A stretch of DNA of 64,000 nt from an uncultured Planctomycetota bacterium (GCA_964385685.1 CAYLQD010000002.1:20704-84703), one strand, 5' to 3'; numbered from the stretch's first letter, positions 44,222-62,480 are shown. Translations and numbers: made by a program. Notes: generated by a model from the sequence alone, not told the origin.

Positions 44222-45706
44222 CTACAGAATTCCGGAGAGAAGCTGCGCGACGGACTGCGCGAGCTTGACGATGCGCGGGCGGCGGCGGAACCGGTCGAGG
44301 TTGATCTCCTCACACACGGTGATGTCCGCCTCGAACTGCTCCCGTAGCGCCCGCGCGAACGCCTCGTTGTAGACGAACGCCGAGACCTCGAAGTTGAGGA
44401 GGAACGATCGCACGTCCATGTTGGCCGAGCCGACGCTCCCATAACGGCGGTCGACGGCGAGGGTCTTCGAGTGGAGGAAGCCGTCGGTGAGTTCGAAGAT
44501 CCGAACGCCCGCTTCGAGCAGCTCTTCATAGTACGAGCGGGCGGCGCTGGTCACGATGCGGACGTTGGACTTGCGCGGGAGCATGACGCGCACGTCGACG
44601 CCGCGCAATGCTGCCGTCTGAAGGGCCGTCACCATCGACCGGTCGGGCACGAAGTACGGCGTGGCGATCAGGATCTCCTCCTCGGCGGCGGTGAGGGCCT
44701 GGAGGTAGAGCTGCTGGATGGTCGGCCAGCGGCAGTCGGGCCCGGACGCGACGATCTGAACGAGCGCCTCGCCGCCGTGATCGATGTCGGGGAAATACGT
44801 CGCGTCCGCCGTCTGCCGCCCGGTCGTGAACATCCAGTCGGTCAGGAAGATCTGCTGGAGCGCGGCGACGACGGGCCCTTGGATCCGGAGATGGGCATCG
44901 CGCCAGCGGCCGGTGTCGGGGTCGAGGCCGCGGTACTCGTCGCCGATGTTCATTCCGCCGACGAACCCGAGGGCGCCGTCGACCACGGCAATCTTGCGGT
45001 GATTTCGGAAGTTGACGCGAGCGATGATGCGGCCGAACCGCGGCGGCTGAAACACGGCGACCTCGCCGCCCGCTCGGGCGAGCGGCTGGAAGAATCCCGA
45101 GCGGCACGCGCGCAGCGAGCCGACGCCGTCGACGAGGACGCGCACCTCGACCCCGGCGGCGGCGCGCTCGGCCAGCAGGTTGCGGATCTCGGTGCCGGTG
45201 CCGTCGGCGTTGAAGATGTAGTAGCCGAGATGAATGTGCGACTGGGCGGAGCGGATGGCTTCCTTGAGCGATTCGTACTTCGCGTCGGCGTCGAAGAAGA
45301 GCCGGACGTTGTTCCCCGGGAACGGATGGCCGGCGCCGCGGAACTGCGCGCTGTTCGCTCCCAGTTCGATGAGGGCCTGCTGCGGCGGCCGGACGGAACG
45401 CAGGACGGACTCGTCGAAGTCGGCAAGATGCTGCTCGAGGTACATCGTGAGCACCTCGTCGGCCTGTCGGTTGACCGCGGCGCGCGCGCGGAACTGCCGC
45501 CGGAAGCGCGTGCGGGCGAGCGCGTAGTAGGCGACGATGCCGACGAGCGGGAGGAAGGTGACGGTCATCAGCCAGGCGATTGTGGCGGCCGGCTCGCGGC
45601 GTTCGCTGAGCACGGCGAGCGCGACGGACCCGGCCTGGAGCACGATGACGGCGGACAGGAGCGTGTGCCAGTGGTCGGCGAGGAAGCTGAGGAGGTGCTG
45701 GAGCAT
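44222..45706 (-). CDS. cls: Cardiolipin synthase (PLD superfamily)
   Basis: Two N-terminal TM helices. Two HKD motifs 'NHRKIAVVDG..GGMNIGDEY' and 'LHSKTLAVD'. Confidence 0.85.
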   Translation of the reverse strand: MLQHLLSFLADHWHTLLSAVIVLQAGSVALAVLSERREPAATIAWLMTVTFLPLVGIVAYYALARTRFRRQFRARAAVNRQADEVLTMYLEQHLADFDESVLRSVRPPQQALIELGANSAQFRGAGHPFPGNNVRLFFDADAKYESLKEAIRSAQSHIHLGYYIFNADGTGTEIRNLLAERAAAGVEVRVLVDGVGSLRACRSGFFQPLARAGGEVAVFQPPRFGRIIARVNFRNHRKIAVVDGALGFVGGMNIGDEYRGLDPDTGRWRDAHLRIQGPVVAALQQIFLTDWMFTTGRQTADATYFPDIDHGGEALVQIVASGPDCRWPTIQQLYLQALTAAEEEILIATPYFVPDRSMVTALQTAALRGVDVRVMLPRKSNVRIVTSAARSYYEELLEAGVRIFELTDGFLHSKTLAVDRRYGSVGSANMDVRSFLLNFEVSAFVYNEAFARALREQFEADITVCEEINLDRFRRRPRIVKLAQSVAQLLSGIL

Positions 45707-45742: not shown

Positions 45743-47677
45743 TCAGTCGTCTTCGCGCGCCGGCTTCGGGGCGTCCTTCGCGGCCTCGAGCGCCTTCAGG
45801 ACCGCTGCGTCGTCGGGGAACGAGTCGCGGAGCAGATCGCTCGCCGCCCTCCGCATATGCTCGTCCTTCGCGCTCTTGAGCTTGGCGAGGAGCATGTCAC
45901 GCGCGGCGGTGCCCGCGATGCCGGTCGGACTGCCGGCCCGGAGCTTCGGGTCGGTTTGCGCGATGCCGGTGAAGCGTAAGGTGCGGTAGGCGAAAATGGG
46001 CTTCGACGATTCCTGTGCTCCGGCGTCCCAGGCCTCCTGCATGGTCTTGGCCGCGGCCTTGAAGTCGCCCGCGGTCGCCTGGGCGCAGGCAAGCGTGTCC
46101 ATGCAGCCCGCGAGGAAATCGTCATCGGCGGGCAGCGTGTCGACCGCCTTCTGCGCCAGCTCGAGGCCGAGCTTCTTGTCACGGGCCTCCGGCCGCCACG
46201 CAGTTGCCAGCTTCCACGCGATGTTGTTGAACTCCATCGCATCGTCGATGGTGCCCGCGATCCGCCGGACCTCGTCCCGCTTGCCCTGCATCATCGCGAG
46301 CGCGAGGGCGGCGGCCTTGCTGCGGGGCATCTCCTCCACAAGCTGCTTGGCTATCTCGAGCGCCCGCTTCGGGTTGTGAATGGCGGGGTCCGGATTGGCG
46401 AACATCTGCCACGCGACGAACTTCCGCTCCCCGTAGCTGAGCGTGTCCATCGACTCGAGCAGCAGGATGCGTGTCACCCAGGCGAGGTCTTCGGGCCAGT
46501 AGTACGAAACGTAGTCGAGGGCCAGCACACTCGAGGCGTAGCCGATGCCGCGCCGCAGCAGCGCGAGCCGGTAGAAGAGCGGGAGCCGCTCTTTCCGTGG
46601 GAGCGCCTGGACGAACACGTGCATGGGCCCGGTCGGCTCGGTCCGCGGACCCCACCGCATCGCGAAGTCGACGAGGTCCTCGGTCAGCTCGGTCCGCTGA
46701 AGCATGCAGGCGAGAAGATACACCCGCCATCGCTGGTCGGAGTCTCCGACACGGAGGGCGCGGCGCAGGGCCGCGAAGTCGGGCCTCGTCTCGAGCATCA
46801 GGCGGTCGGTCTCGTCCATCGCATCGCCATCGCCCCCCTCGCCGCCCTCGCGCCCGATCAACGTGAGTGCCTTCATCCACCGGCGCAGGCGCTTCTCGTA
46901 GTCGTTCGCCGGGGCGTCGGGCTCGGGCGTGTACGTGATGCCGATCGGCGCCGCCGCGAGTTCGACCTGCTCAAGTTCCCATGCCTCCGCGTTCAATTCC
47001 TCCTCGTCGTGGTCGGGCGCCCGTTTGCCGCTGTAGAATCGGAGATGCGCCACGACCTTGGCCGGTGTTGCCGCGGGATCGCTGGGGTCGGCGTCCATCA
47101 GCACCGAGAAGCTCTCGCCCGGCTTGACTTCCCGGCCGAACGGCTTGCCCTTCCTCGCATACAACGGCCGTTCCGGCAGAACGTCTTCGTCTGCCTCAAA
47201 GGCCGGCCCTTTCGCGCCGGGCGGTCGGGCGACAAGTTCCCACCCGAACGGCAGCACGTAGACGGAGCGCTTGCTCGCGTTTCGCAGGGAGATCCAGAGC
47301 GTGACGACGTCGCCCTTGCGCGGGCTGCCGACCGCGAGCGCCGACAGCGTCACGCCCGACACCGGTTCGCCCGGTTTGCCCGCGATCTTCTGGAGCGCGG
47401 CCTGCGCCGCCCGGACAAGTCCCAGGTCCTGACCGTGCAGGACTTTCATCAGCGCGGGCAGCGCTTTGTCGCCGAGCCCCGCCAGCCGGCGCTCGGCCGA
47501 CGCGCGGACCGCGGGCTCATCGCTGTTGAGAAGCCGCAGAAGGCGGACGATGGATGAGCCACCGCGCGAGCCGCCCGGCCGGCCCCGCGGCCCGCTCCAC
47601 GCGGGCGCCGTCGCAGCACCGAAGACGAGAACGATGAGCAGCCCGAGCGTCAGCAACTTCGATGGCGAGCGTGACAT
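45743..47677 (-). CDS. Hypothetical secreted protein (HEAT/TPR-like helical repeats)
   Basis: Signal peptide 'LLTLGLLIVLVFGAATAPAWS'. 644 aa. No catalytic motif recognised. Confidence 0.45.
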   Translation of the reverse strand: MSRSPSKLLTLGLLIVLVFGAATAPAWSGPRGRPGGSRGGSSIVRLLRLLNSDEPAVRASAERRLAGLGDKALPALMKVLHGQDLGLVRAAQAALQKIAGKPGEPVSGVTLSALAVGSPRKGDVVTLWISLRNASKRSVYVLPFGWELVARPPGAKGPAFEADEDVLPERPLYARKGKPFGREVKPGESFSVLMDADPSDPAATPAKVVAHLRFYSGKRAPDHDEEELNAEAWELEQVELAAAPIGITYTPEPDAPANDYEKRLRRWMKALTLIGREGGEGGDGDAMDETDRLMLETRPDFAALRRALRVGDSDQRWRVYLLACMLQRTELTEDLVDFAMRWGPRTEPTGPMHVFVQALPRKERLPLFYRLALLRRGIGYASSVLALDYVSYYWPEDLAWVTRILLLESMDTLSYGERKFVAWQMFANPDPAIHNPKRALEIAKQLVEEMPRSKAAALALAMMQGKRDEVRRIAGTIDDAMEFNNIAWKLATAWRPEARDKKLGLELAQKAVDTLPADDDFLAGCMDTLACAQATAGDFKAAAKTMQEAWDAGAQESSKPIFAYRTLRFTGIAQTDPKLRAGSPTGIAGTAARDMLLAKLKSAKDEHMRRAASDLLRDSFPDDAAVLKALEAAKDAPKPAREDD

Positions 47678-47765: not shown

Positions 47766-48488
47766 TCAGGCGTCCGCGCCGGCGCCCGCAAGCAGATCGT
47801 CGAGATCGAGCAGCGCGTCGAGCGTGTCGATCACCGGCACCGAGGGCTCGCCCGCCGGCCAATGCCGTCGGAGCGCGCGATGCTTGAGCCAGACAGGCCG
47901 GATGCCGGCGCCCTGGGCGCCGACAACGTCGATCCGCCAATCATCGCCGACATGAACGGCCTCGGCGGGCAGAAGGCCAAGCCGCTCGAGGCAGAGCCGG
48001 AAAGGGGCCGAATCGGGTTTCGAGGGCACGCCGCCCTCCCCCGCAACGACGACCACATCGAAGAACTCGCGAAGCCGCGGCAAGCGATCGATCCCATGAT
48101 CCTCCGACACGCCCGGCCCCTGGCAGTTCGTGACAAGAGCGAGCTTGAACTGCTCCGCCAGCCGGCCAAGCACGCGGATCGTCTCCGGGAAGGGCCGCGT
48201 CGCGTCGCGGACCTGCCCCCAATACTCCCGCTCCCAGAGCCCGAGCGCCGCGGGGTCGGGCTCGCGCGCGTAACGGCTGTAGACGGCTTCCCACATCTCG
48301 GACCGGGAGAAGTTGGGCGCCCGCTCGTCAAACTGCGACCGGAGGGCGCGGTAGTCGGAGAGGAACGTCTCCCACGGTGCGCCGAGATCTTCGCAGATGC
48401 GGACCTCGGCCTGCTTCTCGGCCGCGCGAAACCCGGCGGACGAGTCGACGAGTGTCTGCGTGAAATCGAACAGAACCGCCTTGGTCAT
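47766..48488 (-). CDS. HAD-superfamily hydrolase (subfamily IA; possibly phosphonoacetaldehyde hydrolase PhnX-like)
   Basis: Motif I 'AVLFDFTQTLVD' (D-x-T, compare PhnX D-x-A-G-T-T), 'LVTN', 'KPDSAPF', 'GDDWRIDVVGAQGAG'. Confidence 0.6.
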   Translation of the reverse strand: MTKAVLFDFTQTLVDSSAGFRAAEKQAEVRICEDLGAPWETFLSDYRALRSQFDERAPNFSRSEMWEAVYSRYAREPDPAALGLWEREYWGQVRDATRPFPETIRVLGRLAEQFKLALVTNCQGPGVSEDHGIDRLPRLREFFDVVVVAGEGGVPSKPDSAPFRLCLERLGLLPAEAVHVGDDWRIDVVGAQGAGIRPVWLKHRALRRHWPAGEPSVPVIDTLDALLDLDDLLAGAGADA

Positions 48489-48503
48489 ACCGTGCGGAGG
48501 CGC

Positions 48504-49892
48504 CTAATCGCGGCCCCACTTCGCCAGATACTCGCCGAACAACTCCTCGTCGCTCGGAACGTGCTCCGGGATGGGGACCGACAGTCGCGTGTAGTTGAGG
48601 AACTGGCGCCAGTTGATGTTGTCGCTCGTCATGTTGCCCGCCCACGTGCCGCAGCCGAGGGTGTCCGTCGTCGGCTGGCCGTTGAACCAGCTTCCGCTGT
48701 TGGCGGCCGCGTGCGGCATGTTGCAGTTGACGCGGCCGACGTTAAGCCGCCGGGCGAGTTCGAGCTGGCGCTCGCGGATCTCGCTGTGGATCGAGGCCGA
48801 ATGCCCCTCGCCGGAGAACGCGAGGATCTTCTCCGTCCGGTCGACCATCTCATCGAAGTCGGTCCATTTCCACACGGTGAGCGTGAGGGATATTTTCTCG
48901 CCGGAGAAACGGTCTTCGGGGCCGATCTTCTCGCCGACGACCATGAGGAACCGCGTGCCCTCGGGGATGTCGATCTGCGCCTGCTCGGCGATGGTGGCGA
49001 CCGGCTTGGCGACGACGTCGCGGTTGAGCGCGTGCCCGTCGGGCCACATGTAGGTCCGCAGCCGCTCGCGTTCGTCGGCGCTGCAGAGGTGCCCGCCGAC
49101 GCCCCTGAGCGCCTCGAGCATCTCGTCGTAGACCGTGTCTTGGATCGCGACCGCGTTTTCCGACGAGCACGACGCGGAGTTGTTCGCCGTCTTCGACTTC
49201 ATGATCTTCTCGGCCGCGGCCCCCAGGTCGGCCGTGTCGTCGACGATCGAAACGACGTTGCCGGCTCCGACGGTGTGGGCCGGCTTGCCCGCCTCGTAGA
49301 CGACCTTGATGAGCGCGGCCCCGCCGGTGGCGACCGCGAAATCACAGACGCGCATCAACTCCTGCGTCTTCTCCTTGCTCGTCTCCTTGATGCACTGAAG
49401 CAGGTCCTCGGGCGCTCCGATCTTCTTCAGCGCCTTCCGGCCGTGCTCGACCGCGAGATACGAGCTACCCTGCGTCCGCGGGTGCGGCGAGACGATCATC
49501 GCGTTCCGCGTCTTCAGGATGTTGACGCCGAGCGCGCAGACGGTCGACTCGGGGTTCGTGCACGGGACGACGTTCGCGATGACGCCGATGGGCTTGGCGA
49601 ACTTCGTGATGCCCTTCTCCGGGACTTCCTCGACGATCCCGCACGTCTTCGCGCCCTTCATGTCGCGCAGGCTGCCGCGCGTCTTCGCCTGAATCTTCGC
49701 AACCTTGTCCTCGTAGACGCCGATGCCGGACTCGTCGACGGCGAGCCGCGCGAGCGCCTCCGCCGTCTCGGGCTTCTGCCACTCCCAGCCGACGGCCTGG
49801 ACCATCTCGTCGACCTTGTCCTGCGGCCAGAACTCGACCTCCTTGAACGCCTTCCGCGCGCGTTCGTACATCTCCTGGATGTTGTCAGTCAT
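48504..49892 (-). CDS. CoA-acylating aldehyde dehydrogenase (EutE/PduP/AdhE-N family, acetaldehyde dehydrogenase (acetylating))
   Basis: 'VPCTNPEST', 'KTRNAMIVSPHPR', 'ATGG', 'GKPAHTVGAGN', 'SCSSENA', 'LGCGTWAGN'. GGAGAAG RBS before ATG 49892. Confidence 0.75.
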   Translation of the reverse strand: MTDNIQEMYERARKAFKEVEFWPQDKVDEMVQAVGWEWQKPETAEALARLAVDESGIGVYEDKVAKIQAKTRGSLRDMKGAKTCGIVEEVPEKGITKFAKPIGVIANVVPCTNPESTVCALGVNILKTRNAMIVSPHPRTQGSSYLAVEHGRKALKKIGAPEDLLQCIKETSKEKTQELMRVCDFAVATGGAALIKVVYEAGKPAHTVGAGNVVSIVDDTADLGAAAEKIMKSKTANNSASCSSENAVAIQDTVYDEMLEALRGVGGHLCSADERERLRTYMWPDGHALNRDVVAKPVATIAEQAQIDIPEGTRFLMVVGEKIGPEDRFSGEKISLTLTVWKWTDFDEMVDRTEKILAFSGEGHSASIHSEIRERQLELARRLNVGRVNCNMPHAAANSGSWFNGQPTTDTLGCGTWAGNMTSDNINWRQFLNYTRLSVPIPEHVPSDEELFGEYLAKWGRD

Positions 49893-49894
49893 CG

Positions 49895-50920
49895 TCACTT
49901 CTTCTCCCGTTTCGTGCCTTCGTACTTCGCCTTCGGGGGCTTGACCTCTTCGACGATCGCCCAGCCGGTGCCGACCATCTTCTGGCGCTCGTCGAAGGCC
50001 TTCTTCCACTCCTCCGGCGTGTGGGCCTGGCCGGGGACGGCGTGCTGGTCCCGCTCGGCGAGCGGGGGCACCGGCCGGTCTTCGGGCCCGTCATACCATT
50101 CCTTCGGCGTGAGCGCCCGGCCCTGCCGGACAAAACCTTCGCGCTCGATCTCCTCGCAATAGTGGGCGCCGGCCGCGAACGCGCGGGAGATCGCGAGGAT
50201 CGCCCATGTCGCCTCGCCCGAGAACCCGAGATCGAGCATCACGGCGCCGGACGCGCCGAGCAGATCGATATCGACCGGCTCGGGACTCGCCGCCCCCGCG
50301 GCCTTGACGACCTCCTTCATGAAGGCGACGTGCTCGCCCGCCACGCCCAGCTTCTCGGCTCGCGCCATCATCCGCTTCGCGGCCGGATCCTTGAGCATCA
50401 GGTCCGAAACGCCGAGCGCCTCGTCGTCCTTCTTGTGCTCGACGACGAGCTTCGCGGCCTCCTCGAGCGACATCTCGCCCTCGTCGACCTTGTGCAGGTA
50501 CTCGTCCATGATCGTGCCGAACGCGCAGTAGGCGCCGAAGGCGTGGCCGAATGCGAGGATCGACGCGCCCGCTCCCTGCGTGAGGAGCGTCTTCGACTGC
50601 GCGACGAGCCGCGAGATCGCGGCCGGAGCCGACAGCCCGTCCTCCATGCCGAGGATCATCACGTAGTTGAGCATCTGATTCTCTTCTTCCGTGGGGATCC
50701 GCGCCTGGAAGTCGACGAAGATCACGTCCGCGAGCCCGTACCCCGCCTCGGCCAGTTCGGTCGTGTCGTAGCCGCGGGCCACGATCCGGTGCACGTTCTT
50801 GTAGGCCACTTCGGACAGCCAGCGGAACGGCTCCCGCCCGTCGTTGGTGTCACGCTCGACCGTTCCCCACTCGCGGTCGTGGTAGTCGTAGCGGAGCCGC
50901 GGATCGTCTAGATTACCCAT
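49895..50920 (-). CDS. Citrate synthase-family protein (short, citryl-CoA lyase-like), paralog 2
   Basis: 'ARGYDTTELAEAGYGLADVIFVDFQARIPT' citrate-synthase N-motif. AAGGAG RBS before ATG 50920. Confidence 0.5.
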   Translation of the reverse strand: MGNLDDPRLRYDYHDREWGTVERDTNDGREPFRWLSEVAYKNVHRIVARGYDTTELAEAGYGLADVIFVDFQARIPTEEENQMLNYVMILGMEDGLSAPAAISRLVAQSKTLLTQGAGASILAFGHAFGAYCAFGTIMDEYLHKVDEGEMSLEEAAKLVVEHKKDDEALGVSDLMLKDPAAKRMMARAEKLGVAGEHVAFMKEVVKAAGAASPEPVDIDLLGASGAVMLDLGFSGEATWAILAISRAFAAGAHYCEEIEREGFVRQGRALTPKEWYDGPEDRPVPPLAERDQHAVPGQAHTPEEWKKAFDERQKMVGTGWAIVEEVKPPKAKYEGTKREKK

Positions 50921-51804
50921 TGGAGGTATTCTCCTTCTTCCTTCTGTTTCCTGGCGTGCTCCTGACGCGCCTCGGCCGGAGGCACCTCGCGCTGATCCGG
51001 CCCGACGTACTTGATCATCGAGAGGTCGAGCATCTGGATCATCGGCTCGGCCTTCGACGCGGCCCACGCCCGCCCCTTCTTCATGTGGAACAGCGCGTGT
51101 GCGGCGCAACTGAACCCGCGGCAGACGCAGCCGATGCACCACGCGGCGTTCGGCGAAAAACCGAGGTCGGCGAGCGCCGTGTTGCCGGCGCCGATCATGT
51201 TGACGGCGACGTAGGAACGGCCCTCGCTCTCACGGCGGCCGTGGAAGTACTTCTCGACGGCCCGCTGGAACTGCAGGTACACGCCGCCGAGTCCCAGTTC
51301 CTCCTGCTTGAGGTGCGTCGGCTCCGCACGTGGATCGCCGTCGGTGTGCTGCGGCTGCCCCATGCCCATCACGGGCTGCTTCGCGTCGAGGTGCTCGTCG
51401 ACAAGAATCTTGCCCATCTCGTCGAGCGTCTTGCCCTCGACACGGGCGCGCTCGATGTGCTGATTCATCATGTACCCGTGCGCGGCGCCCGGGCCGTGGG
51501 CCCCGCCGAACGTCATGACCGACGCAGCGATGGCCGCCGGCAGGTTCGGCCGGCCGCTGATGACGGCGACGGCCGACGCGGCCGAGGGTGACATCGAGTG
51601 CTCCAGAAACTCACCCATCTCGTACTCGAGCATCTTGTGCTCGGGCGTCGTCGGAATCCGGCCCTGAAAGAGCACGAAGAGCGCGTCGCAGAACGAATAT
51701 CCCTCCTCGGCCAGCTCGCTCAGATCGTAGCCGCGGACGACGGTCTTGTCCTCCGTCTTGTACGAGATACTCGTCTTCCTCTTGATTGGCGGCTCTCTAT
51801 TCAC
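50908..51804 (-). CDS. Citrate synthase-family protein (short, citryl-CoA lyase-like), paralog 1
   Basis: 'VRGYDLSELAEEGYSFCDALFVLFQGRIPT', 'FGGAHGPGAAHG' (compare GPLHGGA), 'GMGQPQHTDGDPRA' (compare GFGHRVYK.DPRA). Confidence 0.55.
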   Translation of the reverse strand: MNREPPIKRKTSISYKTEDKTVVRGYDLSELAEEGYSFCDALFVLFQGRIPTTPEHKMLEYEMGEFLEHSMSPSAASAVAVISGRPNLPAAIAASVMTFGGAHGPGAAHGYMMNQHIERARVEGKTLDEMGKILVDEHLDAKQPVMGMGQPQHTDGDPRAEPTHLKQEELGLGGVYLQFQRAVEKYFHGRRESEGRSYVAVNMIGAGNTALADLGFSPNAAWCIGCVCRGFSCAAHALFHMKKGRAWAASKAEPMIQMLDLSMIKYVGPDQREVPPAEARQEHARKQKEEGEYLQWVI

Positions 51805-51849
51805 ACTTGCACCTCCGTTTCAGGCATCCACTGGGGCGGTCGAGACAGT

Positions 51850-52100
51850 CCATTCCTTGCCCCGAAGGGGCAAAAGCGGCAGCTTGGCTGCCGTCGCAGT
51901 TTGCCCAAGGCAAACTGCCAGGCGAGCGACGCTCGCCCATCAGCCCAGGGCGAAGCCCTGGGTAACAGAACACGTACCGATCAAGCCCTGAAGGGGCGTT
52001 AGAGGATTCCTATCGCCCCTTCAGGGCTTCCGAGCCTGCCTGACCCTTTCTCCCAGGGCTTCGCCCTGGGCTGATGAATTCGAGCCTTTCAGGCTCAGCA
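51850..52100. repeat. Hairpin-cluster repeat element (copy A): at least 8 consecutive GC-rich hairpins
   Basis: ttgccccGAAggggcaa, gcggcagcTTGgctgccg, gtttgccCAAggcaaac, gcgagcgACGctcgc, cccagggcGAAgccctggg, and a 16-bp IR aagccctgaaggggcg/cgccccttcagggctt. 51875-51945 is about 93% identical to the reverse complement of 62230-62300. Confidence 0.65.
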
Positions 52101-52144
52101 CGCCACTTTTTCAACGTGTCTGAGCGAGCGTGTAACCCAGCTCT

Positions 52145-53527
52145 TCACATCTTCACCGACAGGGCCGGGAAGCCCGAGTTGGACAGATGCTTCAGCGTCT
52201 TCGCGACGAAATCCACATGCTCGTCCGTCGGACGCCCGGACGCGAGGTCGAAACACTCGGTGTAGCTCTTGCCGATCGACGCGGTCGCGAGCCCATCTTC
52301 GTATTTCGGGAGCAGCGCGTTGGCGAGGTCGCTCGCCTCGGCCCGCGTCATGCCCGCGCTCGCGAGCGCCATGTCCGTCGTGACGCGCATCTCCATCGGC
52401 GTCACGTAGTCCGCCACGGTCGCCTTCGCCGGATGCGGCGTCTGAATCGACACGCCCGACGCGATCATCGCCGGAATGAACGCGGCGCTCTCGTAGTAGA
52501 ACGACTCCGTCATCGGGCCGCCGGCGTTGTAGGCGAGAGTGAGCGTCGGCATCGTCGTGTTTCGCGAGATCGCCTGCGAACTGGCGGCCGTCGCCCAGAT
52601 CACGTCGCGTGTGGTTGAGCAACTGGTGTTGACGTGCACCGGGAGCGAGAGGTAGTAGTTGCACTGATAGACGAGCATCCCGAAGAAGACGTAGGCCGTG
52701 TTGAGGATGGCGGTGCCTTCGGGGCCGCCGGCGTATCCGCCCAGCATCGGGGCGCTCGCCAGCACGACGTTGTATTCCGAACTCAGGCCCCAGACCGCCT
52801 TGGCCATCATCTCGCGGTTGGTCTTGAACTCGGCCAGTGAGCCGATGATGATGCAGTCGCTCGGCCGGAGCACAAACTGTGCGGCCGCGGCGGCAATGGT
52901 CGCCGTTGCGCTGCCGGCGGTCGCGATGCCGTTGATGATCGGCAGGCCAGGCCGGCCGGCGTCGCGGCACGCCGCGCGGGCAATCTTGAGCGACCGAATG
53001 GCTCCGAGAATCTCCGTCGGTTGCCCCGTGACAATCGCCCGCCCGTCGATCCTGTCGAGCGCGTTCACACTCATCGAATCGGCCGCCCGGATCAAGGCAT
53101 TCCCTCGGACGATCTTGTACGCGATCTCCTCGCTCGACGCGACGATGCCGGAGCCGACGTGGCACCACGGCCGCGCGCTGCTGTCGGGCTTACGCGAGCG
53201 GAAGATGCGGGCCTCCTTGCCCTCGCCGAAACGGCAGTCGCCGTTGTACGTCGCGACGGCTTCGAGCACCTCCTCGCGGGTGAAGCGGATGACGCTCTGT
53301 GTGTCCTGGAAGTACACACCGCACTCGACGAAGAAATCGACGGCCGCGTCGAAGACCTTGTCGGCGAGCGCGTCGTCCGACGGGACGGGCGTGTCGGGGT
53401 CGTAGCGGATGTCGTACTTCCCGACGAGCCGCTTCAGGGTCGCGTAGACGTTACCGAGGTCGAACGTTTCGACCGGCAGCTCCGGGCCCTTCTGCGCCCG
53501 GTCGCATACCTCAAGAAGACTGATCAT
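52145..53527 (-). CDS. MtmB-family (monomethylamine methyltransferase-like) protein, no in-frame UAG, paralog 1
   Basis: 'FVECGVYFQDTQSVIRFTREEVLEAV' (compare MtmB LVECGVYCTDTERVCKFTEEEIWDAI), 'GRPGLPI', 'PMLGGYAGG', 'IGKSYTECFDL'. 460 aa, uninterrupted. Confidence 0.7.
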   Translation of the reverse strand: MISLLEVCDRAQKGPELPVETFDLGNVYATLKRLVGKYDIRYDPDTPVPSDDALADKVFDAAVDFFVECGVYFQDTQSVIRFTREEVLEAVATYNGDCRFGEGKEARIFRSRKPDSSARPWCHVGSGIVASSEEIAYKIVRGNALIRAADSMSVNALDRIDGRAIVTGQPTEILGAIRSLKIARAACRDAGRPGLPIINGIATAGSATATIAAAAAQFVLRPSDCIIIGSLAEFKTNREMMAKAVWGLSSEYNVVLASAPMLGGYAGGPEGTAILNTAYVFFGMLVYQCNYYLSLPVHVNTSCSTTRDVIWATAASSQAISRNTTMPTLTLAYNAGGPMTESFYYESAAFIPAMIASGVSIQTPHPAKATVADYVTPMEMRVTTDMALASAGMTRAEASDLANALLPKYEDGLATASIGKSYTECFDLASGRPTDEHVDFVAKTLKHLSNSGFPALSVKM

Positions 53528-53536
53528 TGCGGCCCC

Positions 53537-54913
53537 TCACTGGTGCTTCAGTGCGAAACCCATCGAGCGGAGTTCTCCCATTGCCTCGCCGTAGAGGTCA
53601 ACGTATTCCTGGCACGGCCGCCCGGTGACGACGTCGTGGCAGTCATGGTACTTCTTCCCGATGGGGGCGTCGTCGATCGTGTCCTCGTACATCGTCAGGA
53701 GCTTCTTCACGATCCCGTTGGCGTCCTCGCGTTTCATCCCGACCGTCGCTTCGGTGATCTCGACCGAACCGCGCATTTCCATCGGGGTGATGTAGTCGTT
53801 GAGGACGGCCTTTGCCGGGTGCGTGGTCTGGACGGACAGCCCCGACGGTATCGCGGTCGCGATGTAGGCGGCGCTCTCATAGAAGAACTGCTTGGTCATC
53901 GGCCCCGCAGAGATGTAGCCCAGCGACCAAACGAGTTCCTTCGTGTTGCGGCTGATGGCCTGCGAACTCACGGCCGTGCACCAGAGGACGTCGCGCATCG
54001 TGGAGCAGCCCCGACTGATGTGCACGGGGAATGTCAGATGATAGTCGCAGTTGAGCAGCACAAGCCCGACCAGCCGGTACGCGACGTTCACCACGGCCGT
54101 GCCCGCAGGGCCGCCGGCATAGCCACCGACGAGCGGGCCCGACTCGTTGCCGATGTTGGCGCCCCAGCTCTGGAGATACGTCGCTTTGTTGAGCGTGCCC
54201 ATGTCGAACTTCATCTCGGCCATCGCACCGACGAGCCAGCCGTCGGATGGGCGAAGCCCGAACTGCGGACCACTGGCCGCAATCGCCGCCATCGACGTTC
54301 CCGCGGTCGAGATGAGGTTGCCGATGGCCAATCCCGGCCGGCCGGCGTGTTGAAGCGCATCACGGGCCACCTCGATTCCGCGGATCGCACCCATGATCTC
54401 CGTCGGCATGCCGGACGTGACCATGTAGCCGTGGACGGTCTCCAGCGCGGGCACGCTGATGGAGTTCGCCTGCCTGATGCCGGCATAGTCTCGAACCAGG
54501 TTGAAGGCAATCCGTTCTTCCGTGTTGACGATGCCGCTGCCAACGTGGTACCACGGCCGCGTGTCGCTGTCGGGCAAGCGGGGCGTCCACTCGAAGCGAT
54601 CTTTCCCTTCCCCCATGATGCAGCGGCCGCGAGCGTTCGCGACCGCGTGGAGAATCTCTTCGCGCGTGAACTTGATGATCCTGTGGGTATCGGTGCAGTA
54701 GACGCCGACGGCGGCAAGAAAGTCGACGGCCGCCTGATACGTGCGGTCGGCGAGGTCGTCGTCGGCCGGGACCGGCGTCTCGGGGTCGTACACGATGCCG
54801 TATTTCTCGCGCAGGTTTCGCGCGTTCGCGTAGACGACATCGAGGTCGAACTCATCCGACGTCATGGCCGGGCCGTCCTGCGCCCGCCGGCAGATTTCGG
54901 GCATTCCGATCAT
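53537..54913 (-). CDS. MtmB-family methyltransferase-like protein, paralog 2
   Basis: 'AVGVYCTDTHRIIKFTREEILHAV', 'GRPGLAI', 'PLVGGYAGG', 'IGKKYHDCHDV'. 458 aa, uninterrupted. Confidence 0.7.
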   Translation of the reverse strand: MIGMPEICRRAQDGPAMTSDEFDLDVVYANARNLREKYGIVYDPETPVPADDDLADRTYQAAVDFLAAVGVYCTDTHRIIKFTREEILHAVANARGRCIMGEGKDRFEWTPRLPDSDTRPWYHVGSGIVNTEERIAFNLVRDYAGIRQANSISVPALETVHGYMVTSGMPTEIMGAIRGIEVARDALQHAGRPGLAIGNLISTAGTSMAAIAASGPQFGLRPSDGWLVGAMAEMKFDMGTLNKATYLQSWGANIGNESGPLVGGYAGGPAGTAVVNVAYRLVGLVLLNCDYHLTFPVHISRGCSTMRDVLWCTAVSSQAISRNTKELVWSLGYISAGPMTKQFFYESAAYIATAIPSGLSVQTTHPAKAVLNDYITPMEMRGSVEITEATVGMKREDANGIVKKLLTMYEDTIDDAPIGKKYHDCHDVVTGRPCQEYVDLYGEAMGELRSMGFALKHQ

Positions 54914-54934
54914 GCTGAGCGTCTCCAGACAGAG

Positions 54935-56065
54935 TTACTTGAGCGTCACGTCCATCTCATCGATCACGTCCCGGATGGCGGCGAGGAGGTCCTTGACGTC
55001 CGGCTCGAAGATCCGCCCGATGTTGCCGATTCGGAAGCAGTCGGCGCTGCTGACCTTCCCGGGATAGATGACGTAGTCGCGCTCGTTAAGCCCCTCGTAG
55101 AACTTCTCGAACGTGAAGTTCGGGTCCTTGGGGAAGCGGAACGAGGTGATGATGACGCCCTGGTCTTCGGGCGCGAGGTACTCCTCGAACCCCATCGCAC
55201 GCATGCCGGCGACGAGGGTCTCGTAGTTTGCCTTGTAGCGCGCGTGGCGCGCGGCGACGCCCCCCTCGGCCTCAAGCTCCGCGAGCGCCTGGCGGAACGC
55301 GACGAGCGAGTGCGTCGGTGGCGTGAACCGGAATTGCCCGTTCTTCTCGAACCCTTCGTACTGCGCCAGCAGGTCGAAGCTCAAGCTCCGTGCGTAGCCC
55401 TTCGTCTCCCGAAGCGAGCTGATCTTCGCCAGCACGAACGAGAAGCCGGGCACGCTCTCGATGCACTTGTTCGCCGACGAGACGAGATAGTCGATCCGGC
55501 AGGCGGGCAGATTGACGGGCACGGCCCCGAAGCTGCTCATCGCGTCGACGAAGAACTTCGCCCCGGCGGCGTTGACGACCGCGCCGATCTCCTCGAGCGG
55601 ATTCATGATGCCCGTCGTCGTCTCGCAGTGCGTGAGCGAGACGGTCGTGATGGCCGGGTCGGCCTCGAGCGCCGCCTCGACCGCGGCCGGGTCGGGCGTC
55701 GTGTTCTCTGCGAACTCGAGCCGGGCGACGTCGACCTTGAGCACCTCGGCCATCGTCGCGATCCGCTTGCCGTAGGCGCCGTTGATGATAACGAGCAGCT
55801 TGCCGCCGGGCGGAACGGTCGAGCCGACGACGGCCTCGAGCCCGAACGTGCCGCTGCCCTGCATGAGAACTGCGGTGTATTCGTCGGTGCCGGCCTCGCC
55901 CAGTTCGACGAGCCCGTCGCGGATTTCGCGGATGATGCGGATGAACTCGTAGTCGCGCGAGCCGAGGTCCCGCAGCATGGCTTGTTTGACGGCTCGGCTG
56001 GTGGTGAGCGGGCCGGGCGTGAAGAGGAGCTTGTCCTTGGCTCCGGGGATCCTGGCGGCTGTCAT
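54935..56065 (-). CDS. phnW: 2-aminoethylphosphonate:pyruvate aminotransferase
   Basis: 'LLFTPGPLTTSRAVKQAML', 'SSANKCIESVPGFSFV', 'GGVAARHARY', 'VIYPGKVSSADCFRIGNIG' are near-identical to enterobacterial PhnW blocks. GGAG RBS before ATG 56065. Confidence 0.85.
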   Translation of the reverse strand: MTAARIPGAKDKLLFTPGPLTTSRAVKQAMLRDLGSRDYEFIRIIREIRDGLVELGEAGTDEYTAVLMQGSGTFGLEAVVGSTVPPGGKLLVIINGAYGKRIATMAEVLKVDVARLEFAENTTPDPAAVEAALEADPAITTVSLTHCETTTGIMNPLEEIGAVVNAAGAKFFVDAMSSFGAVPVNLPACRIDYLVSSANKCIESVPGFSFVLAKISSLRETKGYARSLSFDLLAQYEGFEKNGQFRFTPPTHSLVAFRQALAELEAEGGVAARHARYKANYETLVAGMRAMGFEEYLAPEDQGVIITSFRFPKDPNFTFEKFYEGLNERDYVIYPGKVSSADCFRIGNIGRIFEPDVKDLLAAIRDVIDEMDVTLK

Positions 56066-56360
56066 TCGCGCGTCTCCAAGGCCGCTGCTGGCCCTGATTG
56101 AAGGGCACAGCTTACATAGTCGGTCTTGGCGGCGCAACAGAATTCCGCCGCGCACGGGCGATTTGCGGAAGTCTGGCGGGGGCGGGCGTTGATCTAGCGG
56201 AAATTGTCACGTGGGCGGCCGAGAAGCATGCCGCGCGCGTTGTTGACGCGGACCTCTCCCGTGGTGTGGACGTTCGGTCGGCGCCTTGGGCGCTTGCATT
56301 AGGTGCGCCGACGATGTACGCTGGGGCCGACACGCCAACTTTGCAGAGGGAGGAGACACG

Positions 56361-56792
56361 ATGAGATGCCCCCGCGACGGCACGGCTCTGGCGAAGGTCG
56401 AGCTCTTCGGCCTCGAACTCGACAAGTGCCACAAGTGCGACGGCCTCTGGTTCGACCGCGGTGAACTCGACAAGATCCGCGACGCGAACGTGCGGGACGT
56501 CGAGGAGGTGCTCGAGGACAAGTACGGGGACCCCGAGTTCGAGGAGGGAACCGTCGACGGCTACATGCAGTGCCCCCGCTGCGACGGCCGGCTGCGGCGG
56601 CAGAACTACACGTACGATGACCCCGTCGAGATCGATTGCTGCCTGAAGTGCTACGGAGTCTGGATCGACAACGAGGAACTGAACGCCATCCTCTCGGCCA
56701 AAGCCGAACTCGACGAAGACGACGAGCAGGTGCGCACAGGCATGCTCAAGCGGTTCCTGGGCAAGATCTCCGGCCGCAAGCCGGGGGCCTGA
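56361..56792 (+). CDS. Zinc-ribbon protein with duplicated 'CPxC...C.C.G.WFD..EL' modules (zf-TFIIB-like)
   Basis: GGGAGGAG RBS then ATG 56361. 'CPRDG..CHKCDGLWFDRGEL' and 'CPRCDG..CLKCYGVWIDNEEL'. Confidence 0.5.
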   Translation: MRCPRDGTALAKVELFGLELDKCHKCDGLWFDRGELDKIRDANVRDVEEVLEDKYGDPEFEEGTVDGYMQCPRCDGRLRRQNYTYDDPVEIDCCLKCYGVWIDNEELNAILSAKAELDEDDEQVRTGMLKRFLGKISGRKPGA

Positions 56793-56890
56793 CGATGTTC
56801 CGCAAATTCCGGGCCCGCTGATGCGTCTAACCCATCGACGCCGCTTGGTGAAGGCGCACGCCGTCGCTCCTTGCCGTGTCATTGCCCACT

Positions 56891-56918
56891 TTGCGCGATG
56901 GGTTTCGCGCTGTATAAT
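56891..56918 (+). promoter_or_regulatory. Promoter-like TTGCGC-16-TATAAT upstream of the pseudokinase gene
   Basis: Read directly. Confidence 0.3.
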
Positions 56919-57009
56919 GGGCCTGTTCGGAATCAGTCGCCCGCGAGGAAGGGGACGCGGGGGTTGTGACCACGGTCGGCTGGGGCTGACGAATCTTGGG
57001 GGGACTGAC

Positions 57010-60000
57010 ATGTCCACAGGACCAGTTGCGGCGACGCCGTCCGACGGCGGCCCGACCACGGTCGCCGGCTATGAGATCATCTCCAAGATCGGCGAGGACG
57101 CCGTCGGGACCGTCTTCAAGGCGCGGCAGCTCTCAACGGACCGCCTCGTCGCGCTGAGAGTCGTCAACGCGAAGATGGCGGCCGACAAGCCGTTTATGGA
57201 CAGCTTCCTGCGCGACGCCCGGGTCGCGGCCGGGCTCAAGCATCCGAACATCATCGAGGTGTTCGACGCGGGGACGGCCGAAGGCCAAGCGTACCTCGCG
57301 ATGGAGCTCGTTGCCGGGCGGGACCTCAAGAAGCTTCTCGCCACGACCGGCGCATTGGAGCAGCAGCGGGCGCTCGAGATCTCCCGCGACATCGCCCAGG
57401 CGCTCGACTGCATCCACCAGGCGGGCGTGGTCCATCGCAACGTCCGGCCCGAGAACATCTTCGTCGGAAGCGACGGCGCCGCGCGGCTCACGGGTCTGGG
57501 CGCCGCCCACCGGCCCAATGTCGGTGTCCTGGGCCAGCCGGGTTCCGGCGCCGCGCGCGAAGCCGCCGACTATGTGTCGCCGGAGGAGGCGCGGGGCGGC
57601 GAGGGCATCGACGCTCGCGCCGACATCTACTCCGTCGGCGCCACTTTGTACCACATGTTGACAGGCGACCCGCCCTTCACGGGCAAGGCGGCCGCTGACG
57701 TGCTGTCCAAGCACGCGACGACCCCCGCGCCCAATCCCTGCGCGGCCGCGCCCGGCGTCTCGGCGCACGCGGCTGCCCTCATTCACAGGACGATGGCGAA
57801 GGATCCCGCGAACCGCTACGGGAGCGCCCACGAGCTGCTGGCCGACCTGAAGCTGTTGCTCGGATGGGCGGCCGAGCCGGCCGCTCCGCGATCGAGTGCG
57901 CCCGACACCCGCGCGGACCTCGGCCTGAGGGACAAAGAGCCGCCTCGCAAATCGAGTGCGCCCGACATCCGCGCGGACCTCGGCCTGACGGACGAAGAGC
58001 CGCCTCGCAAACGGCGCGGCCTGGTCGTCGGCGTCCTCGGGCTCGTCCTGCTCGCGGCGGCCGTGGGGCTCGGAGTCATGTTCTTCCCCGAATCGACACC
58101 GGAACAGAGCCCCGAGGAACAGGAGTTTGCAGCCGTCCGGAAGTGGGTCGCGGACAATCCGGGCAAATACCACGCCGCCCAGGAGAAGTACCGCCGCCTT
58201 CAGAGCACCGTCACCGATCCCGACCGCAAACGCCGAATCAAGGAGACCCTGCTCGAACTCGAGGTCGAGCGCGGCCGGGCCGCGGACGCATTCTTCGCCG
58301 AACTCGAGTCGACGGCAAACAAGCTGGCGGAGCGCCGCGACTATGGCAAGGCCGTCGGTCTCTATCGGAATCTTCCGCCGCAGTTCAAGGACGGCCTCCT
58401 TCCGCGGGCCAGCGAGGCGATCGCAGCGCTCGAGGCCGCATCCAAATCGGCCCTGGCGATGCACATCAAGCGCGCCCGCCTGCTGCTCGAAGAGGAAGAC
58501 CCGATCGCGGGCCTCGAAGAGCTTGGCCGCGCCGACGACCTGATCCGCGGCGAGCCGCCGCGGGAGGTGGACGAACTCCGGGCCAACCTCGAGCGGGCCA
58601 TGGTGTGGCGGGCGCTGATCGCCAAGGAGCGCCTGGAGAAGGTGCTGGACGCCGTGGACGCGCTCGTTGCCGAGGGGAAGCTGGCCGACGCGGCCGGCAA
58701 GGCCCTGGCCGTTGCGAAGGACGCGGAGTCGGCTTACGCGCCGGCCACCGCGAAGAGCATCGCGGGAATCGGGGCCGCGCTGCGGCAGGCCGCGTCGGAC
58801 TCGAAGAAGCAGGTCGAAGCTCTCACGCCCGACGGCCATATGGCCGCCGCCATTCTCGCGCTCGCGGCGGGCCGGCCTGCCGAGATGGGGACGGCGATCA
58901 CCCGTGCCGACGCCCACGAGTTTCGCGTCCGCTACCTCGACAAGCTCGACGTTCTGAAGAAGCAGATCGCGCGGCGCGAGGCCGAAGAACGCCGGCGGCA
59001 GCTTGTTCAACTCACGGCGTTTCGGGCGACCCTGCCCGGCGAGTTGAAGAAGCGCAACTACAAGCCCCTGCTTGCCAGGTTGGATCAGATCATCGCCGAC
59101 CCCGATCTGTCGGCGATTCGCGAACACGCCGAGGCCGACCGGCGGATCCTCGCGCGGCTCGCGGCGACGCTCGACCGCATCCGGCTGAACGTCCGCACCG
59201 AGGCGGGCAAGGCGAAGAAGACCCCGACACGCCGCCGAGGCATCCCGGCGACGATCACGAAGTATGATCCCGCGACCGACACGGTGACGTTCAGCGCCGG
59301 CGCGCCGGAGGCGATCGCGTCGATGCGGGCCGTCGACCTGGCGAGCTTGCTCGGCCTCGACCCGGGCCCGGCCGAGCAGCACCACGAGAGCGTCGCGCTT
59401 CTCCTCATCGCGTCCGGCGAGCCGAAGGCGGCCGAATCCCACGCCGCGAAGGTCGCACAGCGCACCAACCTCGACCGCCTCAACACGATGCTGGCCCCGC
59501 CCGGACGCGCGGATGACGAGATCGACGTCGCCGCCGCAGTCGAGGACGACACGACCGACGAGGCGGCCTCGACCGAGAAGGTCGTGAAGAAGGTGCTGGG
59601 CGAGGACTGGAAGCCGGCCGAGGAGCCAGAGCAGTTCAAGGGCTCGCTCATCCCCGGCTACGACGACGCATTCCTGAAGCAGGGGAGGTGGGCGGAGGGG
59701 CGGGCGTACTACACGGAGCAGTTGACCGGGGTCCTCTCAGCCAAGAAGCCCGACCTGCTCGCCGCTCAGCGGTTGCTGTACGCCCAGGACGTGTGCCAGC
59801 TCTTTCCCGCGGTCGCGGGCGGGGCGCCGTCGCCCGAGGACCGCCCCTTCGCACAGTGGCTCCTGGCGCATCCGAGCCTCGTAAGGAAGCTCGTCGCGGC
59901 CGTTCGGCCCGGCGACAATCCCGCGGGGATCTTCCGCATGCTGTACCTGATCAAGACCAAGGCCCCGGTGAAGAAGGTGACGCATGAGAATCTGATGGTG

Positions 60001-62184: not shown

Positions 62185-62480
62185 ATCTCGCCCTTTCAGG
62201 GCTTCGCCGTTTCGACATCCCGTTCCCGGGGCGTTGCCCTGGGCTGTTGGGCGAGCGTTGCTCGCCTTGCAGTTTGCCTTGGGCAAACTGCGACGGCAGC
62301 TTTGCTGCCGCTTCGGCCCTTTCAGGGCCAACGGCTACGGCCAAGCGCTCCTTGGTCCGTTGAGAAGCTCCTCCTTCGGGGTGGCCCCGACTCTGTCGGG
62401 GTCGCCGGAGGCGACAAGAGGAAGTCGCTTCGTCCTCTTGTCCGCTTCGCGGACCCGGACGGAGTCCGGGCCACCCGACG
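62185..62480. repeat. Hairpin-cluster repeat element (copy B, inverted relative to copy A)
   Basis: gcgagcgTTgctcgc, cagtttgccTTGggcaaactg, gcggcagcTTTgctgccgc, ggccctTTCagggcc, accccgacTCTgtcggggt, gacaagagga..tcctcttgtc. Confidence 0.65.

Follow-up and report, generated by a model that had tools for sequence, protein, structure and literature searches.

No natural phosphonate is more abundant than 2-aminoethylphosphonate (AEP), whose degradation feeds phosphorus cycling in the sea and in sediments. The closest described catabolic systems are the PhnW-PhnX "phosphonatase" route with acetaldehyde dehydrogenase and the PhnW-PhnY-PhnA route, in which phosphonoacetaldehyde is oxidized by the non-acylating PhnY before C-P cleavage. 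Accessory Pbf enzymes (PbfA, PbfB/C/D, PbfF, and PbfG) belong to unexpected families that recur in phnW clusters and are presumed to widen the substrate range. Systematic studies of AEP clusters list PbfA to PbfG and PhpC and mention no MtmB- or citrate-synthase-family genes, and a marine survey recognizes only PalA, PhnA, PhnX, PhnZ, and C-P lyase. Here, we report a seven-gene cluster from an uncultured Planctomycetota bacterium (GCA_964385685.1 CAYLQD010000002.1:20704-84703; a 64-kb stretch, called the window, with a G+C content of ~67%), in which phnW stands with two MtmB-family genes (mtmA and mtmB2), two short citrate-synthase-like genes (CS1 and CS2), and genes for a coenzyme A (CoA)-acylating aldehyde dehydrogenase (ALDH) and a haloacid dehalogenase-type hydrolase (HAD). 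In the reading that we favor, at somewhat under even confidence, the cluster would degrade AEP through PhnW, phosphonoacetyl-CoA, and C-P cleavage by CS1/CS2, with the MtmB pair as an accessory funnel.

The seven consecutive genes, all on the minus strand at 47766-56065 (positions counted in the window), were delimited with an open reading frame (ORF) list and GC3 frame analysis, and families were called by Pfam and NCBIfam profile searches with curated cutoffs. Start codons were chosen from ortholog alignment and ribosome-binding sites and agree with the gene calls of the 95.9-kb source contig, JGI metagenome contig Ga0118727_1000526; the phnW ATG at 56065 is preceded by a GGAG motif. From phnW to HAD, the features are as follows.

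54935..56065, minus strand: phnW, 2-aminoethylphosphonate:pyruvate aminotransferase, 376 aa (NF010006, TIGR02326)
53537..54913, minus strand: mtmA, non-pyrrolysine (non-Pyl) MtmB-family protein, 458 aa (PF05369, 316 bits)
52145..53527, minus strand: mtmB2, second non-Pyl MtmB paralog, 460 aa (PF05369, 276 bits)
51805..52144, no strand: intergenic island between the modules, made of nested GC-rich palindromes (inverted arms, RNA fold)
50908..51804, minus strand: CS1, short citrate-synthase/citryl-CoA-lyase-like protein, 298 aa (PF00285, 65 bits)
49895..50920, minus strand: CS2, divergent CS1 paralog, 341 aa (6HXP match; PF00285, 28 bits)
48504..49892, minus strand: CoA-acylating aldehyde dehydrogenase (ALDH), SauS/SucD type, 462 aa (NF047625, 518 bits)
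47766..48488, minus strand: HAD-IA hydrolase (HAD), 240 aa, non-PhnX, without the Asp+2 general acid

The gaps in that order are 21 nt, 9 nt, 340 nt, a 13-nt overlap, a 4-nt overlap, and 15 nt. An initial annotation, made from the sequence alone, had described seven tightly spaced or overlapping minus-strand genes in two blocks split by a hairpin island, and the coordinates and spacing bear this out. Its family assignments agreed with Pfam and NCBIfam throughout: one PhnW, two non-Pyl MtmB paralogs (no in-frame stop), two short citrate-synthase-family proteins (PF00285 and 6HXP matches), a CoA-acylating ALDH, and a HAD. The observation is therefore confirmed, and the interpretation attached to it is partly supported. 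Recurrence of the same gene set in many independent loci puts the arrangement far beyond chance. Literature searches combining phosphonates with citrate synthase, citryl-CoA lyase, acylating dehydrogenase, or MtmB returned nothing relevant, in agreement with the earlier statement that the gene combination is undescribed; neither of the two modules set out below was found described in the literature searched, and the cluster is akin to the known hydrolytic AEP catabolic clusters but holds these two uncharacterized modules.

PhnW exceeded three equivalog cutoffs (NF010006, 487.5 bits, cutoff 296; TIGR02326, 472.9 bits, cutoff 400.8; TIGR03301, 462.9 bits, cutoff 360.8). A 91%-identical ortholog locus (L003) contains the same seven genes together with divergently oriented genes for PhnS2, PhnT2, and PhnU2, an AEP ATP-binding cassette (ABC) transporter, all above cutoffs. 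PbfA, the (R)-1-hydroxy-2-AEP (HAEP) ammonia-lyase, is encoded in L001, L002, and L084 (700 to 716 bits; cutoff 525). Locus L116 has PhnE above cutoff as well as PhnD-type binding-protein and ABC ATPase genes found by tblastn, and these loci as a group gave below-cutoff matches to the PhnX-like hydrolase, HpnZ-like alcohol dehydrogenase (ADH), and phn_DUF6 models. Other relatives hold a PbfF-like 2-hydroxyacid dehydrogenase, an HpnZ/PbfG-like zinc-dependent ADH (Zn-ADH), PhnCDE, and sometimes a bona fide PhnX or PhnA. Phosphoenolpyruvate (PEP) mutase was found in none of the related loci; likewise, no phosphonopyruvate decarboxylase, Xsc, or sulfite exporter was seen in them. With AEP/phosphonate transporters, PbfA, and PhnX or PhnA present and PEP mutase absent from related loci, the interpretation as an aminophosphonate cluster holds, and judged by gene content the context is phosphonate catabolism. 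The catabolic role for aminophosphonates that had been suggested earlier is thus upheld by the neighborhood comparison (transporters, PbfA, and the PbfG/HpnZ-like ADH). A pathway for sulfonates (taurine/sulfoacetaldehyde) could be read from the fact that SauS is the best NCBIfam model of the ALDH, and a biosynthetic cluster might also be considered, but both are scarcely credible when PhnW passes its equivalog cutoffs, the neighbors are AEP/phosphonate transporters, PbfA, PhnX, and PhnA, and the sulfonate and biosynthetic marker genes named above are missing from every locus. Both were rejected on genomic context.

Metagenome contigs were scanned with CS1, which gave 80 loci; the counts reported are from loci with enough flanking sequence. 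CS2 lay directly downstream of CS1 in 63/63 loci, followed by ALDH in 35/37 and HAD in 21/28. A well-flanked subset comprised 21 loci (4 kb or more upstream, 7 kb or more downstream). PhnW (NF010006 type or TIGR03301 type) is encoded in 15 of these 21, and in 5 of the 15 it is the second PhnW type (TIGR03301, 411 bits; cutoff 361), embedded between CS2 and ALDH; most of the PhnW-free loci carry a Zn-ADH or PbfA, other known sources of phosphonoacetaldehyde. Only 4 of the 21 have a known C-P hydrolase (17 are without), and only 8 have MtmB genes. From the PhnW and C-P hydrolase counts and the constancy of CS2 and ALDH it follows that the conserved core is phnW, CS1, CS2, and the acylating ALDH, commonly with HAD and usually without PhnX or PhnA. 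The cluster consists of two separable modules, CS1-CS2-ALDH(-HAD) and the MtmB pair; in L013, L014, and L101, the CS1-CS2-ALDH-HAD block is inverted relative to phnW-MtmA-MtmB2 and still adjacent to it. Median identity among module orthologs is 75% for CS1, 72% for ALDH, 63% for CS2, and 49% for HAD.

One locus (L083) shows a substitution of the whole module. Its order is phnW-MtmA-MtmB2-PhnX (TIGR01422, 340 bits; cutoff 220)-MMSDH-type acylating ALDH, and PhnX and ALDH occupy the exact position that CS1-CS2-ALDH-HAD has in the window. Because that position holds the classical pair leading from phosphonoacetaldehyde to acetyl-CoA and inorganic phosphate (Pi), the analogy argues that the four-gene module would do the same job as PhnX plus an acylating ALDH.

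Several other genes were seen in or beside the module. A NUDIX hydrolase gene replaces ALDH after CS1-CS2 in L090, L091, L099, and L102. In L086 (15384-20897), phnW-CS1-CS2-ALDH is accompanied by a pair of class-III aminotransferase genes and by fragments of the MttB family (PF06253), with several transposases interrupting them. An EamA-type permease similar to the TIGR03340 family ("phosphonate utilization associated") is encoded just 5′ of CS1 in 21 loci (e.g., L151, 4888-5760), and a 204-aa HDIG-domain protein in 7 (L119, L132, L136, L139-L141, and L145). A "PhnX-like" hydrolase distinct from true PhnX (L002/L012, 7712-8440; also L105, L113, L116, L130, and L151; best match TIGR03351, 170 bits, cutoff 219) is, in several loci, found with a Zn-ADH on the upstream side of the CS1 module.

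For the ALDH, the best NCBIfam model was SauS (NF047625, 518 bits over the full length, below the cutoff of 600), which led the next, AdhE (376 bits), by 142 bits, and the best PDB match was the succinyl-CoA reductase SucD (8CEI). SucD binds the distal carboxylate of its acyl group through Lys70 and Ser243 (PMC10249356). The equivalents of Lys70, the catalytic Cys242, and Ser243 are invariant in 43/43 module ALDHs, and AdhE has Ala at the Lys70 position. Because Lys70 and Ser243 are kept and SauS and SucD are closest, the enzyme appears suited to an aldehyde with an anionic group, which in this context is more likely phosphonoacetaldehyde, converted to phosphonoacetyl-CoA. The initial annotation had the ALDH oxidize acetaldehyde; the SauS/SucD likeness and the anion-binding Lys and Ser favor phosphonoacetaldehyde itself. 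Besides falling below the SauS cutoff, the ALDH differs from SauS and SucD in having phosphonate rather than sulfoacetate or succinate neighbors and a predicted substrate that bears a phosphonate group. The proposed pathway resembles PhnW-PhnY-PhnA in oxidizing phosphonoacetaldehyde before C-P cleavage, but the oxidation would be CoA-acylating, by an AdhE/SucD-type enzyme.

The route first proposed for this cluster instead makes the HAD a functional PhnX that releases acetaldehyde and Pi, after which ALDH forms acetyl-CoA and the CS and MtmB pairs are accessory or unrelated. Its net chemistry equals that of the PhnX and MMSDH-type ALDH found at the same position in L083, and the HAD, like PhnX, combines an Asp nucleophile and a Mg-binding GDDxxxD with the lack of Asp+2. 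However, the HAD gave no match to TIGR01422 (PhnX), its PDB sequence matches include no PhnX, and BLASTP against the L083 PhnX found no similarity; a fold search returned generic HAD neighbors only, with no specific lead. As to the cap-domain Schiff-base Lys (Lys53 of PhnX), residues 14 to 100 of 24 HAD orthologs contain no invariant Lys and none with 90% conservation or more. The core consists of the D8 nucleophile, a +2 residue that is Thr, Gly, or Cys, K157, and the Mg-binding motif IV G181-D-D-x-x-x-D187; Asp+2 is absent in 26/28 orthologs, and motif I reads FDFGQTL in 23/28. By these sequence comparisons, the HAD is not a member of the PhnX family, so that of the PhnX likeness claimed earlier, the motif I without Asp+2 stands and the family membership does not. 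That route is further weakened by the absence of HAD from 7/28 modules, by the SucD-type Lys and Ser of the ALDH, which acetaldehyde enzymes do not have, and by leaving the always-present, most conserved CS1/CS2 without a function, and we consider it unlikely. A Mg-type motif IV without Asp+2 would suit a leaving group that is a carbanion or enolate. Just 3′ of HAD, in convergent orientation, L135, L154, and L159-L162 have a Janus/Ocnus (phosphohistidine phosphatase family) gene; it was considered as a hint of a phospho-His intermediate and dropped as lineage synteny, because its orientation is convergent and it is limited to these six loci, which are closely related.

CS1 and CS2 both have citryl-CoA lyase (CCL; H. 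thermophilus enzyme, 6HXP) as best PDB match (E = 5e-19 and 3e-18, respectively), and CCL together with the CCL module of ATP-citrate lyase is their best structural homolog (E ~1e-18). They share with CCL a short architecture that lacks the N-terminal part of citrate synthase. Both missed the NCBIfam citryl-CoA lyase cutoffs (CS1, 118 bits, cutoff 212; CS2, 96 bits, cutoff 193), and the two are 31% identical to each other. CS1 itself is very conserved: its top 120 database matches, excluding the identical source sequence, are 76 to 87% identical and all ~298 aa, under labels that span Planctomycetia, Spirochaetota, Chloroflexi, Proteobacteria, and others. The His of the G-x-G-H signature (PROSITE PS00480) is the active-site His of citrate synthase, equivalent to pig His274. 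In that region CCL has GYGHRYY, CS1 an invariant GMGQPQH (Gln for His), and CS2 LGVSDLM; CS2 is without both conserved His motifs. As judged from these residues and scores, neither CS1 nor CS2 is an ordinary citrate synthase or citryl-CoA lyase. They also differ from CCL in being a diverged paralog pair, where CCL has a single subunit type, and in their phosphonate context, where CCL belongs to the reductive tricarboxylic acid cycle. The 13-nt CS1/CS2 overlap is conserved, with translational coupling; this and the unequal divergence (75% versus 63% identity) suggest that the two form a heteromer, CS1 being the catalytic subunit. One CS1 ortholog (P0185, 427 aa) carries an N-terminally fused cytidylyltransferase-like domain (PF01467).

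In the pathway that we propose, PhnW would convert AEP and pyruvate to phosphonoacetaldehyde and alanine (substrate taken from the family), and the SauS/SucD-like ALDH would turn phosphonoacetaldehyde, CoA, and NAD(P)+ into phosphonoacetyl-CoA. A CS1/CS2 heteromer, derived from citryl-CoA lyase, would then bind phosphonoacetyl-CoA and cut the CH2-P bond to give acetyl-CoA and phosphate. Phosphonoacetyl-CoA would be nearly isosteric with citryl-CoA, a tetrahedral anionic PO3 replacing C3, and the leaving group would be the acetyl-CoA enolate that citryl-CoA lyase and citrate synthase stabilize. CS1/CS2 is proposed as the C-P cleaver because this substrate mimicry and the expulsion of an enolate, as in CCL, fit the family. 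The HAD may be a frequent and dispensable helper that accepts or hydrolyzes the phosphoryl group, or may itself hydrolyze the C-P bond of the thioester. The net conversion would be AEP to acetyl-CoA, Pi, and NAD(P)H, an outcome equal to that of PhnX plus acylating acetaldehyde dehydrogenase. The cluster is thus like the PhnW-PhnX system in PhnW, the predicted products, AEP transporters, and PbfA, PbfF, and PbfG neighbors, but the window has no PhnX, the HAD is of another subfamily without the Schiff-base Lys, the CS pair is always present, and the ALDH has anion-binding residues.

The MtmB pair forms the second module. Over residues 9 to 453, MtmA matched M. barkeri MtmB (1L2Q) with E = 2e-60 and MtmB2 with E = 5e-49; the two share 50% identity, and each is ~30% identical to M. 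barkeri MtmB. Neither ORF has an in-frame stop, so there is no UAG-encoded pyrrolysine. At the Pyl202 position, MtmA has Gly and MtmB2 has Asn (pairwise phmmer alignment) or Ile (family alignment, maybe offset by one column); Glu259 is kept in MtmA and is Ala in MtmB2, and Glu229 is Leu in MtmA. Homologs of MtmA come nearly all from Planctomycetota metagenome-assembled genomes. The pair always adjoins phnW or pbfA, while the downstream module is CS1-CS2-ALDH-HAD, PhnX, or absent. Distant MtmB-homolog loci (Chloroflexota, Desulfobacterales, Thermoleophilia, and Spirochaetota) have a corrinoid protein of ~220 aa immediately adjacent in 55/63 cases, against 0/26 Planctomycetota-type loci and none in the 64-kb window by motif search (Fisher p = 9e-16); a second search (tblastn, 65 corrinoid proteins against 438 kb) was also negative. 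No MtbA-type or tetrahydrofolate (THF) methyltransferase was found near the pair.

A first role among non-Pyl MtmB proteins was reported in 2026: MtqB demethylates tetramethylammonium and choline with the corrinoid protein MtqC, and all other non-Pyl MtmB proteins are of unknown function (PMC13044021). MtmA and MtmB2 resemble MtmB and MtqB in their full-length PF05369 match, and MtqB in having no pyrrolysine, but they differ in having no adjacent corrinoid protein or partner methyltransferase, in being two tandem diverged paralogs, and in lying within Planctomycetota AEP/HAEP clusters. By analogy, the pair behaves like an accessory "Pbf"-type enzyme that would convert an AEP-related amine, with N-methylated AEP as the leading candidate; like Pbf enzymes, it would be a funnel module, although the MtmB and citrate-synthase families are unreported among Pbf enzymes in the systematic AEP-cluster literature searched. 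This MtmB clade may have lost its dedicated corrinoid protein and use one encoded elsewhere, or have a corrinoid-independent activity.

A more specific version has MtmA/MtmB2 as a corrinoid-dependent demethylase of tri-, di-, or monomethyl-AEP that feeds PhnW, with the corrinoid protein and the methyl-acceptor methyltransferase elsewhere in the genome. It draws on the family membership, the constant adjacency to phnW or pbfA, and the MtqB substrates, choline being a structural analog of trimethyl-AEP (PMC13044021), for which no non-oxygenase route is known (PMC10590968); in addition, the closest outgroup locus (L067) is a classical cluster for methylamine demethylation, with Pfam neighbors that comprise a corrinoid protein, a dimethylglycine-dehydrogenase-like gene, MttB, and electron-transfer flavoprotein. 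The corrinoid and methyltransferase searches run the other way, as do the missing Glu259 of MtmB2 and the fact that known non-Pyl enzymes take one methyl off quaternary amines, a product that is no PhnW substrate, and we regard this version as doubtful. Demethylation of N-methyl-AEP by the pair is possible, and the context gives it no support because the loci of this clade have no corrinoid partner; a corrinoid-independent activity is equally open.

Returning to AEP degradation through phosphonoacetyl-CoA with the MtmB pair as funnel, several points weigh against it. The proposal is a prediction from sequence and context. Phosphonoacetyl-CoA is not known as a catabolic intermediate from the literature search; its sole mention there is as a hypothetical product, not observed, in one biosynthesis preprint. 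The canonical active-site His is gone from both CS1 and CS2, so that even their binding of a CoA thioester is inferred from homology. The AlphaFold model of CS1 (pLDDT 58.5; shallow alignment) was too poor for the pocket. A HAD family member occurs alone in a Desulfobacterales genome, and it is this, with the absence of HAD from a quarter of the modules, that ranks the HAD as a helper. No methyl-acceptor system lies within 10 kb of the MtmB pair in the 26 loci. Other C-P cleaving enzymes could act instead: a PhnX-like hydrolase is present in six or so module loci, and a bona fide PhnA is encoded directly 3′ of HAD in L114 (4989-6305; TIGR02335, 542 bits, cutoff 408), with clustered orthologs at the same position after HAD in L120 and L122 and a weaker below-cutoff homolog (204 bits) after HAD in L098. 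As inspection covered the loci, a C-P hydrolase elsewhere in the genome is possible.

The four loci with an adjacent PhnA-like gene also lend themselves to a substitute for PhnY, in which ALDH makes phosphonoacetyl-CoA, CS1/CS2 performs a thioesterase half-reaction to phosphonoacetate, and a PhnA encoded next to the module or elsewhere cleaves the product, or phosphonoacetate is excreted and the nitrogen kept. Citrate synthases hydrolyze citryl-CoA, which offers a precedent, and the variant with excretion parallels the taurine-to-sulfoacetate route; SauS acts in sulfoacetate and sulfoacetyl-CoA pathways (PMC10413351). Yet PhnA is absent from 19/21 well-flanked loci and from the 64-kb window, making a thioester only to hydrolyze it would waste energy compared with PhnY, and the HAD would have no role, so that this substitute is quite unlikely.

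The 340-nt gap between mtmB2 and CS1 is filled by stacked GC-rich hairpins, including 25-nt perfect inverted arms (RNA fold, -196 kcal/mol; z = -9.5). Rfam gave no match for the island or anywhere in a whole-window scan, and a sigma-70 promoter and terminator scan found nothing exceeding the shuffled background. Related palindromes stand in two other intergenic regions (62190-62330 and ~18029), so the island looks like a dispersed repetitive extragenic palindromic (REP)-like element rather than a component that regulates the pathway. In orthologous loci, the spacer at this position is 51 to 271 nt, or the modules are inverted.

A PTA_PTB phosphate acyltransferase gene (62522-63463, minus strand) had been placed downstream and considered as an extension of the pathway; it actually lies upstream of the cluster and unlinked, separated by a rubrerythrin gene and plus-strand genes (Zn-ribbon and large Ser/Thr kinase), and was rejected as a pathway member on that position and those intervening genes. 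It is adjoined by a SpoIIE-type phosphatase gene (63503-63934, minus strand). Divergent from phnW are genes for a Zn-ribbon/TackOD1 protein (56247-56792, plus strand) and a 1,500-aa Ser/Thr kinase (56821-61329, plus strand) that matches a transglutaminase-like domain weakly, below cutoff; both neighbors are also found in the close relative L003 and not in more distant loci. On the 3′ side of HAD are genes for a HEAT/TPR protein (45743-47677, minus strand) and then a cardiolipin synthase (44222-45706, minus strand), the latter downstream in L003 too and probably a matter of lineage synteny rather than pathway membership.

Put at its fullest, and only tentatively, CS1/CS2 may be a new C-P cleaving class that arose from citryl-CoA lyase and acts on phosphonoacetyl-CoA, a metabolite not known before, made by a SauS-like dehydrogenase; this would be a fifth "hydrolytic" route, widespread in anoxic-sediment bacteria, and MtmA/MtmB2 may be the first enzyme of the MtmB family to do without a dedicated corrinoid protein, with an AEP-type amine as substrate. 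Surveys that count only PhnX, PhnA, PhnZ, PalA, and C-P lyase treat a partnerless phnW as orphan or biosynthetic; if the CoA-dependent route is true, it would explain many orphan phnW genes. Its C-P cleavage chemistry would be new and, by conserving the thioester, useful to fermenting anaerobes, and a highly conserved family that carries the annotation citrate synthase would gain a function. For the large group of non-Pyl MtmB homologs, the MtmB pair would provide a second biological context, and it could close the gap in how N-methylated AEP is used anaerobically.

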